From Candidatus Uhrbacteria bacterium RIFOXYB12_FULL_58_10 (GTDB lineage: Bacteria > Patescibacteriota > Patescibacteriia > 2-12-FULL-57-11), in contig CALRHY010000001.1 of NCBI GenBank assembly GCA_943359495.1, positions 1 through 26,048 of the forward strand: a stretch of 26,048 bases of DNA. The letters are read 5' to 3'. A model generated the notes under the pieces. That model searched no databases and was not told the origin of the DNA. It saw only the letters and a program-made list of their open reading frames with translations. A program made the translations under genes and the position numbers. Shown here piece by piece: positions 11,287-15,738 of this stretch. Position 1 is the stretch's first letter. Each line of letters starts with the position of its first letter.

Positions 11287-13456
11287 TCATGCTTCGAGTG
11301 CGCCGTATAAAGCCCGCCCGGCTTTGGCACTCTCGAGCGGACTGGACGAGATGCGCGCAACGCATCACGAAGTGGGTAACTACTTCATCGTCCATGCACT
11401 CTTCGTCGCTCCGGTTTCTCCGAGCGACATCGACGCCTTCGTGGTTTACACAGGGCAAACAAACGGGGTGGGCGGCGTGATTGGTCACGACGTCCGAAGG
11501 ATCTCCTCGATCCAGGCCTGGCAGTTGGTACAACAGCCGCCCACCCCGCACGTTCTTTCACTTAGAGAGGAAGGCATGATCGCCGATGATCGCTTCGAGC
11601 ACTCGCTCGGACCGCAGATCTCGCAATCACGCACGGAGTTCAATAGTCACTCTGAACCCACTTCCTCTCGCATCTTCCTGCCCGTGAGCAAAAACTCGCG
11701 GCCAGAAAGAAGCGATCCTTACAAATCACTCGCACGAGGAAAACGAGACTGACATATTCCACCGCCCGCGAGAGACGGGTGTGTAGTCAGCAACAACAAA
11801 ACGACCGTCTTGATGATGTATCTGTTTCGCGTTCATATATTCACCTTTAGAGGATGAACGCGCGGCCCAAGATTCGCGACACCGACTATAGAGATGCCGT
11901 ATTATCTCGTGCTCGATCGTCATCAAAACGGTCTTTTTATTTACCCTGAGTCGAATCGAAGGGTTTGCAGAAATTGTTTTCTAGGGACGTGGAGGAGAGA
12001 CGCTGCACGCTTGCGTGCGGTGAGGAATCAACATCGTGTCTGGGGCTTCGGCTCCGCCCACTGGTGCACAACCGATTCCATGCTCCGAGGAGTACTTCGG
12101 TACACACCCGGATTCATCTCCACATCCCTGGCAGACATGGCGGCACTTCTCCAACAAGGAAGGTGTGCTGTGGGCAAATCTCCTCACCGCCGCATGCCCG
12201 CCAGACAATTTTGCGCACTCCTACCAGGATGCGCGACCAAACGGGGTAGATTGTCCCCGAGAAAGAAAGCGTCACATGGAGAAATCGCGACGTCGCGACC
12301 TCCGCAGGAAACGCGTAGGGTTCGTCATACGCAGAGAGGCTGATCGTTTCTGGTAAACACGATCGGCACAACCCGCGAAAGAAGGCCGTCTGCGCGCAGA
12401 CACACCTTCTACCAGCAACCAACGTGGCGCGACAATCTGTGGGCAATGAGTGTTGGCCCTACAGCAACAACACTCAAAAAAAGAGGAGGTTGAAATGAGA
12501 CGACTGTAGTTCTCGAGACCCAAGAGGCAGGTTCCGTCGCACTGCCCGGCGAAACGACGGATGGATACCGAGGCGCCATAAAGTCTTCGGAGAGGTACGG
12601 GCATGACCTTAACGAGGTACCCGACAAATCTGGGAGGAGAACATTCGCTTGTGTGACCGCACACAGTTTTCCTCCCCGCTTTATCCGCGACCCTGACGAT
12701 CATTGATCGTCCCGCGGCCAGAGTGCAGCGTTCAGGAAGGGAAGAACGCTCGTGCAATACGACGACAGCACGAGCACGTGTCCAAACCATGAAAGGAGAG
12801 AGATCGTGAAATTTCCGTGGTCGCATCCGCCTTAAGGATAGCGTTCTTCTGAACTAACACGGGGCCGCGACGCCGACAACAACGCCGCCCCGAACAACCC
12901 GACGTAGCGCGCGATTGTTGGCAACGCGCATTACGTAAGGGAGACAGGTCGTTCAGAAGGACGACGCGCGCGGTGCCCGCACCTTTTGGCACCATCCGCA
13001 TCTTGCGAAGCAACAAGTACGCGACACGGGCGACGGCGTGGACGGTACGCCATACCGATCCCGACGACAACATCGCGCGGCCTCGCGAATCGCGCGGACA
13101 CTTCGCACCCACCAAATGAGCCAGCCCATCCGGAAACGCCGGATTCGGGCACGCCGGGGAGAGGCTCCATGTACAGTCCGCTGTATATGTCATCTCCCCC
13201 GCAATCTCCGAGCAACGACCATTGTCGCCGCTCGAACCATTGCGCAAACCGTTCACCATTCATCCATGGAGGAGAGAGCTGTGATCTCACAAGGACGCAG
13301 TTGGTCGCCGGCCAGGGCACGCGGGCTTACCCTCGCATCACCCTGTGTCAGCACCGGATACGGCAAGCGTTCTTCGGAACAATTTCCGGTCTCCCTCCAG
13401 AGATGAGTCGTGAAGCAGAGAGGCTCCGCTTCGCCGTTGGCGGATGGAGCCTTTTC
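11287..13456 (+). ncRNA. Candidate large, multi-domain structured non-coding transcript (family unknown)
   Basis: Starts at P1 and has no convincing ORF. Long-range helices: 11464-76/11536-48 (13 bp perfect), 11588-96/11709-17, 11803-16/11920-33, 11981-94/12118-31, 12844-54/12951-61. Three cUUCGg hairpins; terminator-like hairpin at the end. Folded by eye only. Confidence 0.5.
13420..13456 (+). terminator. Terminator-like hairpin closing the structured region
   Basis: GAGGCTCC...TCGCC-gtt-GGCGG...GGAGCCTT followed by a short T run. Confidence 0.5.
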
Positions 13457-13473
13457 TGTAAAAATATTCTTTC

Positions 13474-13531
13474 TGTCATTCCAAGGAGTCGGTAATCGAC
13501 ATCGTGGATCCCCGCCTTCGCGATGATGGCA
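13474..13531 (+). repeat. Family A repeat copy 3 (short form)
   Basis: TGTCATTCC...TCGACATCGTGGATCCCCGCCTTCGCGATGATGGCA, matching copies 1 and 2. Confidence 0.72.
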
Positions 13532-13700
13532 ACGAAAAAAACTGGACGCGCCACGTGTGCATCAAAAAAGATGTAGACGCGGCGTGTGCAGCAATGCACC
13601 GGAGAACGCCGGAACAGTCTCACCTTCGAAGGAGACTGCTCAAAGAGCCTAGGGGATCTCCGCCCCCGTGACCAAAACGTAGAGACGAGAAGAGGTACCA

Positions 13701-14819
13701 ATGGGAACAACGGACACAATCAAGGTCACTCTGTTCGTGGACGGACAGAAGCGGCGCACAGGACTCATCGCTCGGCACAACCTCGACGCGGTGGTGCTGG
13801 TCCTCGAGACCGCGCATGAGTACCGCGACGATGACATCACTCCTCCGACGGTTCGGATCATGATCCAGACCGAAAAGGTGGTGGTCATCGACGCACACGT
13901 CAACGGCGACGTCGCGGGGACGATGCGCCTCCTCCTGCCCGAGTGGCTCGTCACCGTCGAGGACAAGCCTACCGCGCCGCGCCCGGATCCTGAGGTCGTC
14001 AGGCAGGAGCGGGAGCAGCAGCTCTGGAGGTTAGCGACGGAGATGTACAGGAACGGCTTCGGACAGAAGCCGAACGTGCACATCTGCAGCGTCGAGCGCT
14101 GCCCGGAGCACACGGTGCCAGCAGACCAGCAAATGGGACCCAGAGCACTGCAGCCGGCGATCGCCGTCGACAAGAGCGGGAAAGTCTGGAACATCTGCCA
14201 AGAACACTTCCAGGCTGGACGCCACATCGCCGCGCAGTGGTCGACCTGGGAACAGGCCGCCGAGCAGGCGCGAAGGACAAACGACGTAGGTGCACTTGGG
14301 CGTGCCAACGAAGTTCTGACCGCCATCGACAGGCTCGGCGTGCAGATCGACGTCTTCGCGAGCAAGAAGGCTCAAGAGGCGGCGAAGCCGAAGGGGGCCA
14401 TCGCAGCAGCGCTGACGAAACGCGCCGCGAGCAAACCGTCTGGTAGCGGACCTGCACAGCAGGCCGCCAAACCGGATCCGGATCCCGAGCTCACCACGGA
14501 GAAAGCCGTAGAGCACTTGGCGGAGCAGCTGCGTCGGACGCGGCACGGCGACCTCCTCATGGGTAACCCCCTGGAGATGGACGCGACCGCGTGGAAGAAG
14601 CTCTCCGATCACATGGCGGCGCAACCGTCGGCTGCCGTGGGCAAGCAAGGGCAGCCGCAACGGCGAGCGGAGCGGGCCGTCGCTTTCCTGACCGCAGTGC
14701 GCGGTGAGAAGAGCACGGCGGACGAGGAGGTCCAGTCGGTGCGCTTCGGAGACGAGGCCAAACCGACAAGCGACGACGAGACGGTGAGCGGCGCACCGCA
14801 AGGCGCCACCATCAACTGA
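13701..14819 (+). CDS. Hypothetical 372-aa protein with a putative Cys/His Zn-binding module and an Ala/Lys/Pro-rich linker
   Basis: Long ORF with GAGG 5 nt before the ATG and strongly G/C-ending codons. Motifs CSVERCPEH and ICQEH. A strong hairpin (14893-14942) follows. No family recognised. Confidence 0.8.
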   Translation: MGTTDTIKVTLFVDGQKRRTGLIARHNLDAVVLVLETAHEYRDDDITPPTVRIMIQTEKVVVIDAHVNGDVAGTMRLLLPEWLVTVEDKPTAPRPDPEVVRQEREQQLWRLATEMYRNGFGQKPNVHICSVERCPEHTVPADQQMGPRALQPAIAVDKSGKVWNICQEHFQAGRHIAAQWSTWEQAAEQARRTNDVGALGRANEVLTAIDRLGVQIDVFASKKAQEAAKPKGAIAAALTKRAASKPSGSGPAQQAAKPDPDPELTTEKAVEHLAEQLRRTRHGDLLMGNPLEMDATAWKKLSDHMAAQPSAAVGKQGQPQRRAERAVAFLTAVRGEKSTADEEVQSVRFGDEAKPTSDDETVSGAPQGATIN

Positions 14820-14892
14820 CCTCCGAAAACGGGTTCCCGTGTGGCCCGGCGAGACGACAGTCGCGAGACTGACGACTCCAAACCACCGGAAT

Positions 14893-14950
14893 TGGTCGGA
14901 TTCGAAGCGCGTGCATCACGCAGCGCCAACCGAATCCGACCAGTCTTTTC
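14893..14950 (+). terminator. Hairpin/terminator downstream of the 372-aa ORF
   Basis: Perfect 12-bp stem TGGTCGGATTCG/CGAATCCGACCA followed by GTCTTTT. Confidence 0.55.
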
Positions 14951-15047
14951 CACATCAGGAAGCGTTTCGTGGTGTGAAAAGGAAAATCTTTATTTCTGTC
15001 GATCTTAGCAAAAGAACTATGGGCAACGGCCTCAAAATGCCAAACCT

Positions 15048-15076
15048 TTGACAAGCCTTGAACGGCGCAGTACTTT
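15048..15076 (+). promoter_or_regulatory. sigma70-type promoter P2
   Basis: TTGACA-N17-TACTTT. Confidence 0.6.
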
Positions 15077-15186
15077 AGTGTCCGTTCTGACAAACGAACT
15101 GCTCTCTTTTTTACTTCATGACCTTGGTCGTGGTGTAGGGAAGACGAGCAGTGTGTTTTTTGAACATAACCGAGACGGAGGATCGA

Positions 15187-15408
15187 ATGGCGATTTTCAG
15201 GATGGAACGGCGTGGTACTCGATGTGGACGGAAAGAGCGCCCACCTCTGACGATGGAGCAACGTACGGAACGCGAGTTCCAGCACTGGTGCAACATCCTC
15301 GACACCATCAAGACCGGCGGCCAAGAACGCGGCAATGGAAGGCCGCGTTTGCGATCGAGCCACCGCAGGGTCACCGACTTCAACAGCAACGCACGTACCG
15401 CCGCCTGA
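15187..15408 (+). CDS. Small Arg-rich hypothetical protein (73 aa)
   Basis: GGAGG 5 nt before ATG 15187, downstream of P2; MAIFRMERRGTRCGRKERPPLTMEQRTEREFQHWCNILDTIKTGG... No family recognised. Confidence 0.45.
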   Translation: MAIFRMERRGTRCGRKERPPLTMEQRTEREFQHWCNILDTIKTGGQERGNGRPRLRSSHRRVTDFNSNARTAA

Positions 15409-15547
15409 CCACTCCACACCTTCACGCGCCCGGGAGAGCCGCGTGAAAAAAATCAAACCGTCTGCGCAGATCGTGCGCGACGGCTAGCTCTCCTCGTTTT
15501 TTGGACACAGAAATGTTCTGTTTCTAAAAAACGATTCGATGACTATC

Positions 15548-15575
15548 TTGACAAATAGAAAAAAGTTGGTATTAT
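15548..15575 (+). promoter_or_regulatory. sigma70-type promoter P3
   Basis: TTGACA-N16-TATTAT with an extended -10 TG. Confidence 0.72.
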
Positions 15576-15580
15576 AAAAG

Positions 15581-15738
15581 GACTCGCGAGAGAACTCTGC
15601 GAAGCAGTGTACGCATTCTGCCGCATCGGAAAGTGGAAGCACTCTCTCTCCTCGCGCCGTGTAGCAATACGTGGCGTCGCTTCCCCCTTTCGGTTCGAAG
15701 AAACGCGCGTGACGCCGCTTTGCAGATTTCTCCCGCGA
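15581..15738 (+). ncRNA. Small rod-shaped RNA, 6S (SsrS)-like candidate
   Basis: Has its own promoter and terminator and no credible ORF. 22-bp closing stem 15584-15605/15717-15738 (two mismatches, one G-U), irregular central region, inner stem 15629-40/15679-91, apical 9-bp stem with a GCAA tetraloop. Confidence 0.65.

Follow-up and report, generated by a model that had tools for sequence, protein, structure and literature searches.

The window analysed here, the whole of a stretch of 26,048 nucleotides (nt), is contig C1 of the genome assembly of Candidatus Uhrbacteria bacterium RIFOXYB12_FULL_58_10, which comprises 84 contigs and 679 kb (678,666 bases), is 78% complete and is referred to below as G000. 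The relatives of this genome are Patescibacteria with genomes of about 1 Mb, and the DNA of the window is present in lake-water metagenomes; a look-up of sequencing runs that contain it listed none from RNA. The rpoC (3412-7368), rpoB (7399-10659) and recA (15836-17125) genes are all encoded on the minus strand, and the roughly 5 kb between rpoB and recA hold no protein of known family. Within this interval, on the plus strand, lie a small RNA of about 200 nt with an exposed CU-rich tract and, upstream of it, structured RNAs that carry complements of this tract, here called boxes. To judge from the sequence, the small RNA and the upstream box RNAs probably constitute a new two-RNA regulatory module of uncultured Patescibacteria.

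The small RNA gene runs from promoter to terminator. The promoter (15548-15575) is of the sigma-70 type (TTGACA, 16 nt, TATTAT) and agrees with the consensus at 11 of 12 positions. The body (15582-15742) folds into a long, irregular hairpin whose CUGCGAAG/..GCAG core is conserved, and an intrinsic terminator follows at 15742-15782, where a 15-bp hairpin (-27.1 kcal/mol, z = -6.6) is followed by UUUUGUAUUU. A TTGACA-type promoter at the same place, together with a terminator, was found in all six homologues inspected (G000, G002, G003, G004, G005 and G063). The stretch 15581-15738 folds with -71.1 kcal/mol (z = -4.9), and the minimum free energy structure is identical to the centroid. With covariance models the small RNA was recovered in seven of seven genomes of the order and, under strict filters, in 15 of 151 sampled genomes of the class, from at least 10 families. 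Across the class it is rod-shaped and 160-210 nt long, and its locus is divergent from rpoB; the matches in G063, G076, G150, G118, G085 and G074 all adjoin rpoB, as in G000.

The structure is supported by base changes. In a homologue from another genus, the 16-nt stretch around the tract is unchanged and eight stem pairs are changed on both sides. In an alignment of 11 strong members, which was fitted to the model and hence leans towards structure, 88.7% of cells are paired compared with 71.6% in shuffles and 33-45% in slid controls, and 31 of 45 stem pairs change on both sides, a number reached by none of 500 shuffles. The small RNA has no match in Rfam 15 at the gathering score and no relevant one at E up to 10, and it shows no homology there to RsaE (RF01820) or other described families. 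It is a real, new RNA family without an Rfam match. The model R2 gave no match on Uhrbacteria and Nomurabacteria contigs with box-like or tract-like strings, the relevant part lying off the contig end in both. A 16-mer scan of genome contigs yielded largely chance matches from unrelated phyla and was set aside.

The single-stranded CU tract of the small RNA, ACUCUCUCUCCUC (ACTCTCTCTCCTC), occupies 15641-15653, with the conserved core UCUCUCUCCUC at 15643-15653. The initial annotation of this DNA had described the tract as a one-sided unpaired bulge of the 15581-15738 fold, and both this description and the coordinates and sequences that it gave for the tract, the boxes and a related tract at 15487-15495 are correct. 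The predicted unpaired probability of the tract is at least 0.98; the bulge measures 11-15 nt on one side with 0-1 unpaired nt opposite, and the apical hairpin has about 10 bp. The core is invariant in the six genomes first aligned and nearly so in 18, and the tract is predicted to be unpaired in all homologues (probability 0.45-1.0, mostly above 0.8). Its place in the rod changes from lineage to lineage: the tract lies 5' of the apical hairpin in G000, G002 and G003, between two hairpins in G004-G006 and G001, and 3' of the hairpin in G063, G118, G056, G085, G150 and G084. Because the tract stays fixed and exposed while the surrounding scaffold is rebuilt, it behaves like a seed. The second, shorter CU tract at 15487-15495, GCTCTCCTC (GCUCUCCUC), lies near the end of the upstream transcript on the plus strand and is predicted to be unpaired between a hairpin and a U-run; by inspection, without an alignment, the sequence upstream of the small RNA showed no evident counterpart in G003 and only a loosely similar stretch in G002.

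The complements of the tract lie upstream on the same strand, and the initial annotation had listed four of them as docking sites in one long structured RNA. These are the 10-mer GAGGAGAGAG at 13269-13278 (box C), a further 10-nt site, AGGAGAGAGA, at 12794-12803, the 9-mer GAGGAGAGA at 11992-12000 (box A) and the 7-nt match GAGGAGA at 12634-12640. When the motif was counted genome-wide, as had been suggested, it proved not to be equally frequent elsewhere: outside the block, the 678,666-base assembly has no copy of either 10-mer. Counting both strands, the assembly contains 13 sites with at least 9 nt complementary to the tract core. One of them is the small RNA's own antisense, and three fall on the plus strand within 11992-13278, compared with about 0.02 expected in 2.2 kb at genome density. 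A scan of the window gave five matches with at most one mismatch (1.3 expected). The 7-mer is found 89 times in the genome, so the site at 12634 is at chance level and uninformative.

Comparison with G002, G003, G004, G005 and G006 revealed that the supposed 2.2-kb RNA is not uniform and contains two conserved domains. The spacer between them, from strand B of the first to box C of the second, is about 1140 nt long in G000, about 600 nt in G002 and about 30 nt in G004. The sites at 12794 and 12634 both fall in a spacer insert specific to the lineage of G000, which removes 12794 as a conserved docking site. Only two of the four sites in the window are conserved, namely box A (11989-12000 in its full extent) and box C (13266-13278).

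Each conserved box is the 5' strand of a helix closing a structured domain. In leader domain 1 (11983-12129), known from a consensus fold of six genomes, box A (GUGGAGGAGAGA) pairs with strand B at 12113-12123 (UUCAUCUCCAC), and the extension of this helix covaries (AU:3/UA:3, GC:5/UG:1). In leader domain 2 (13260-13406), known from a consensus fold of five genomes, box C (AUGGAGGAGAGAG) pairs with strand D at 13390-13399 (UCUCCCUCCA), and the flanking pairs covary (CG/AU/GC, CG/UA). Box C and strand D are unchanged in a divergent groundwater population in which their flanks vary. Strands B and D are CU-rich and only imperfect cis partners of the boxes, and the two domains, which lie in tandem and have a GGGCUUCGGCUC-type hairpin in common, look paralogous. 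No conserved start codon or reading frame follows the boxes across the loci compared, and the frame across domain 1 differs between G000 and G004 though the nucleotides are kept; the boxes are therefore regarded as RNA elements and not as ribosome-binding sites or peptide starts. A peptide-coding reading of RUG-GAG-GAG-AGA was likewise rejected, since the frame of domain 1 is not kept between these two genomes.

The linkage of tract and box extends through the class. In the 60 kb upstream of 12 small RNA loci, 13 exact GAGGAGAGAG boxes were found on the strand of the small RNA, distributed over 10 of the 12 genomes and placed 0.2-5.5 kb (mostly 2.4-3.8 kb) from the small RNA. The controls gave no box on the opposite strand, one for the reversed motif and none in the 35 kb downstream. 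An upstream box is also present in G006, the eleventh genome, and the same-strand linkage spans at least five families. The cores of tract and box complement each other exactly and share their boundaries. Tandem pairs of boxes are found at many loci. In several families a strong promoter precedes the first box, its -10 element standing about 20-70 nt upstream of the box. In G085, G118, G063, G095 and G003 this first box is carried by a short terminated transcript, and several of these short transcripts contain, within or close to the terminator hairpin, a CU-rich anti-box in cis as well.

Internal variants of the box were seen in three cases: GGGGAGAGAG in copy 1 of G085 and in G076, where it lies at 2.2 kb, and GAGGAGGGGG in G150, where it lies at 3.4 kb, at the 5' strand of a homologous tandem-domain leader. 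All three are A-to-G changes that keep the pairing with a tract U through G-U, and no G-to-A change of the box was seen in these small numbers. In G074 and G041 the tract has decayed and no box was found in the upstream sequence searched, an apparent co-loss.

Pairing of the tract with the boxes was scored as the sum of the duplex energy and the energy needed to open the target. By this score the boxes rank first in eight of eight upstream RNAs tested, with -13 to -20 kcal/mol against a mean of about +2 (standard deviation about 4). The totals in the window are -15.2 kcal/mol at 12793, -14.4 at 13267 and -13.1 at 11989, and the site at 12794 is predicted to be accessible (97th percentile). RNAcofold of the small RNA with each target gave no tract-box pairs; it was replaced by the combined duplex and opening energy because pairing of the bulge in trans forms a pseudoknot, which cofolding cannot represent.

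Taken together, the sequence comparisons and the models favour a reading in which the small RNA (about 15582-15782) acts in trans by base pairing, with UCUCUCUCCUC as its seed, and would pair with the GAGGAGAGAG boxes in structured RNAs of the same locus. We give this reading a probability of slightly more than one half (about 0.52). The two-RNA docking on an upstream RNA proposed in the initial annotation thereby gains strong comparative support, through near-invariant exact complements, same-strand linkage and recurrence in at least five families, and its "several sites" shrink to two of four. The anatomy, conservation, complementarity, linkage and predicted energetics are described above, and from them we infer that the duplex may form in cells, with either RNA as the possible regulator and more than one possible output. 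The seed would be permanently single-stranded and would find its targets, in this family, in the two tandem leader domains upstream of an orphan open reading frame (ORF) and, in other families, in short, promoter-proximal "box RNAs." The imperfect CU-rich strand that closes each domain (B or D) would hold the box in cis, and the small RNA, as a perfect partner of 10-11 bp, would displace strands B and D and remodel the leader or the box RNAs. It is equally possible that the box RNAs act as decoys that titrate the small RNA. The output could be the translation or stability of the downstream orphan ORFs, or the availability of the small RNA for other targets.

Several points weigh against this reading. 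Box A offers only 9 bp in G000 and only 7 in G002, and box C of G150 has diverged to GAGGAGGAAC. Both conserved boxes of the window are predicted to be mostly paired in cis, with a probability of about 0.001 for 10 nt to be unpaired, although closed boxes would fit a competition of the perfect trans partner with the imperfect cis strands. The naked duplex energies of the sites in the block are equalled elsewhere in the genome and are not the best. The initial annotation had looked to co-variation of the bulge and its targets across related genomes; no true compensatory change of tract against box was found, both being nearly invariant, and what was found are the wobble-preserving variants and the apparent co-loss in G074 and G041. 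Related genomes are moreover not independent samples. The model used in the searches includes the tract, so the invariance of the tract among the weaker matches is partly circular; the position of the matches beside rpoB supports them independently of this model.

It is possible, though in our opinion unlikely, that the small RNA is a housekeeping RNA working through protein, either as a 6S-like decoy of RNA polymerase or as a scaffold with the CU tract as a protein site, and that its complementarity to the boxes has no function. Like 6S RNA (RF00013), it is a stand-alone gene of similar size near RNA polymerase genes whose product forms a rod with an unpaired stretch; it is found class-wide adjoining rpoBC, and its invariant CUGCGAAG/GCAG stem core looks like a protein site. 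The 6S model gave no match in 10600-16000 even at E up to 10, and none genome-wide in G000 or G002, but this Rfam model also misses several control genomes. The structure differs from that of 6S RNA in having no two-sided central bubble, as the loop is one-sided with 0-1 nt opposite, and in an apical helix of about 10 bp that is too short. Furthermore, the tract switches from one strand of the rod to the other between lineages, which would reverse the direction of the polymerase on a 6S-type template. A protein-based role also leaves unexplained the equally invariant, perfectly complementary box on the same strand at most loci.

Another housekeeping identity, that of signal recognition particle (SRP) RNA (RF00169, RF01854), was tried and rejected, as there was no match at E up to 10 at the locus and the sequence of the apical hairpin is not conserved. 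The SRP RNA models also gave no match at E up to 10 in five near-complete relatives. On the protein side, the M domain of Ffh (PF02978) was not found in G000, G005, G002 or G063, PF00448 gave weak P-loop matches only, TIGR00959 was above its cut-off in none of 41 genomes (G000 and 40 relatives from the class), and no G1..DTAGR..TKxD signature was detected in the six-frame translation of G000. All control genomes gave matches in the SRP searches. Either the first-look filter misses divergent sequences of the candidate phyla radiation (CPR), or the class is without SRP.

Next in plausibility, and also improbable, is that the tract serves as a general trans-acting seed against Shine-Dalgarno (SD) sequences with many mRNA targets, the boxes being no more than a handful of numerous SD-like sites. 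In Bacillota it is common for C/U-rich seeds to block SD sites. The box contains GGAGG, and in relatives the 10-mer sometimes stands just before a start codon (for example G002 C10:40786 and G063 C3:15816). The anti-SD mimic that the initial annotation had offered as its second explanation finds no backing in the counts, however: sites of 8 and 9 nt complementary to the tract core number 50 and 13 in G000 against 47 and 11 for the reversed control, and they are not enriched before ORF starts (9 vs. 6 and 1 vs. 1). Nor does it agree with boxes that are strands of structural closing helices and that lack a conserved start codon or frame behind them, and the 3' end of the 16S rRNA is the ordinary CACCUCCUUUCU, which the tract does not copy.

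Considerably less probable is an explanation at the level of DNA, by which box and tract would be a 10-bp inverted repeat flanking an orphan-gene cassette and would serve as a site of recombination or inversion, or as the site of one DNA-binding protein. Box and tract are indeed the same double-stranded 10-mer in opposite orientation, and they bracket fast-evolving orphan ORFs. An invertible or mobile segment is nevertheless unlikely, because no recombinase or transposase domain lies in or near the loci, the place beside rpoB is fixed across the class, and the metagenome contigs of four runs contain no alternative joints, the last being a weak test as contigs hide rare forms. At many loci the box is present twice in tandem, every box variant is an A-to-G change that preserves wobble pairing, and the RNA structure keeps the tract unpaired and shifts it around hairpins, which a DNA site would not need. 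That the match is a product of chance or a low-complexity artefact of purine-rich SD-like sequence is hardly credible, for although purine and pyrimidine runs are of low complexity and the 7-mer site is at chance level, no copy of the 10-mers exists outside the block in this assembly, at least five families have the identical pair at the orthologous locus, and the strand and downstream controls gave zero matches.

The putative pairing of seed and boxes can be compared with several known systems. The RsaE/RoxS-type small RNAs of Bacillota have C-rich seeds and are accompanied by the sponge RNA RosA. Like them, the small RNA described here is an independent promoter-to-terminator RNA that exposes an unpaired pyrimidine-rich seed with complementarity to G/A-rich, SD-like sequences, and, as with RosA, the second RNA with the complementary motif could be either a target or a sponge. 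Several features of the class of base-pairing small RNAs with C/U seeds are present, namely an own promoter and terminator, a conserved exposed seed and conserved complementary sites with favourable predicted hybridisation. The small RNA resembles RsaE/RoxS neither in sequence nor by any Rfam match, however. Its seed does not sit in a hairpin loop but in a long rod, as a one-sided internal bulge or a junction. Its partner boxes are strands of the helices that close structured domains, and not ribosome-binding sites of metabolic mRNAs, and throughout the class the two RNA genes stay next to rpoB on one strand, separated by a few kb.

Another comparison is with cis-acting leader switches, which control expression through alternative pairing of a closing (P1) helix, and with leaders that have aptamers in tandem, for example the glycine riboswitch. 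The locus resembles them in its two paralogous tandem 5'-leader domains, each closed by a conserved helix with the box as the 5' strand. Unlike riboswitches, it has no Rfam riboswitch match and implies no ligand, and the competing strand appears to be supplied in trans by the small RNA. Loci of type I toxin-antitoxin systems that sequester the SD sequence, AapA1/IsoA1 among them, likewise have neighbouring RNA genes with complementary SD-like and anti-SD-like tracts, in which cis and trans pairing compete. They differ in that no conserved small hydrophobic ORF follows the boxes here, the downstream ORFs being orphans of 85-470 amino acids.

Two further loci with CU tracts were noticed in genus g5. 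The first (L219, G005 C2:685500-691500, about 2150-2330, minus strand) has a hydrophobic ORF of 40 amino acids (MLKIIIVAF...) whose SD sequence is preceded, at a distance of about 45 nt, by a CU tract, GCUCUCUCCUCUUCC; it is conserved in G004 and G006 and resembles a type I toxin with cis SD sequestration. The second (L220, G005 C2:625500-631500, about 2360-2540, minus strand) has a TTGACA-17-TACTAT promoter and an RNA with a second AUUUCUCUCUCCUCUAC tract, is also found in G004, and may encode a paralogous CU-tract small RNA. The 10-mers of these two loci are probably read on the other strand and were not counted as boxes.

The remainder of the interval holds a 5' unit, the orphan ORF and a repeat. 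The P1 promoter of the 5' unit (11252-11280, plus strand) agrees with 10 of 12 consensus positions and stands back to back with the rpoB promoter. The unit ends, upstream of box A, in a long hairpin and U-run at 11803-11942 (fold z = -3.6), with a terminator-like site at 11915-11933; this hairpin element has homologues in G002 and G003. As it lies between P1 and the first site, the placing of the sites in the P1 transcript by the initial annotation holds only if the hairpin is read through. The 5' unit as a whole (11287-11942 in the window; about 190-800 in L014 and about 37-297 in L185) extends from promoter to long terminator hairpin and is conserved in G002 and G003, which have a box of their own near its 5' part (GAGGAGAGAU and GAGGAGAGAG); the corresponding place in G000 has only CACGAGGAAAACGAG. 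A REP-like repeat of about 35 nt (GGATCCCCGCCTTCGCG..., 13494-13529) exists in about 20 copies across the assembly, is also found in the G003 leader and draws many contigs in the metagenome runs.

Downstream of the leader, an orphan ORF of 372 amino acids with a Cys/His module (13701-14819, plus strand) gave no Pfam match, and an Atlas search gave nothing usable; its similarity to the ORF at the same position in G002 is weak, with a local match of 58 amino acids at 28%. The ORFs between box RNAs and small RNA are fast-diverging orphans in every lineage, 85-470 amino acids long and without any Pfam family, and even those of G004 and G005, two genomes of one genus, are 25% identical. Several of them bear Cys/His zinc-ribbon-like modules. 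BLAST among the orphan proteins gave weak links within the family and no others. Beyond the small RNA, the RecA protein has 429 amino acids, with an N-terminal extension of about 85 residues ahead of the RecA domain.

The CPR bacteria of the Patescibacteria have genomes of about 1 Mb with few recognisable regulators, and no paper was found in the literature on their riboregulators or on RNAs of the present kind in them. Two well-defined RNA families absent from Rfam 15 are now added, a covarying small RNA with an invariant seed and structured RNAs that carry the boxes, and they mark a conserved locus beside rpoBC that holds only orphan, rapidly diverging proteins. A broader view, which we put forward tentatively and with some doubt, is that a switch made of two RNAs is inherited vertically throughout the class next to the RNA polymerase operon of Patescibacteria. 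In it, the invariant 11-nt seed of a rod-shaped small RNA would invade the closing helices of short box RNAs or of structured leader domains in tandem and thereby control a fast-evolving orphan cassette. No conserved circuit of riboregulation would have been described in the CPR before this one. The pairing of tract and box is a concrete hypothesis that can be tested with compensatory mutants. Should the pairing prove real, it would give insight into how genes are controlled in a major uncultured lineage and provide an example of a trans-acting RNA that competes with a cis strand for the helix closing a domain.

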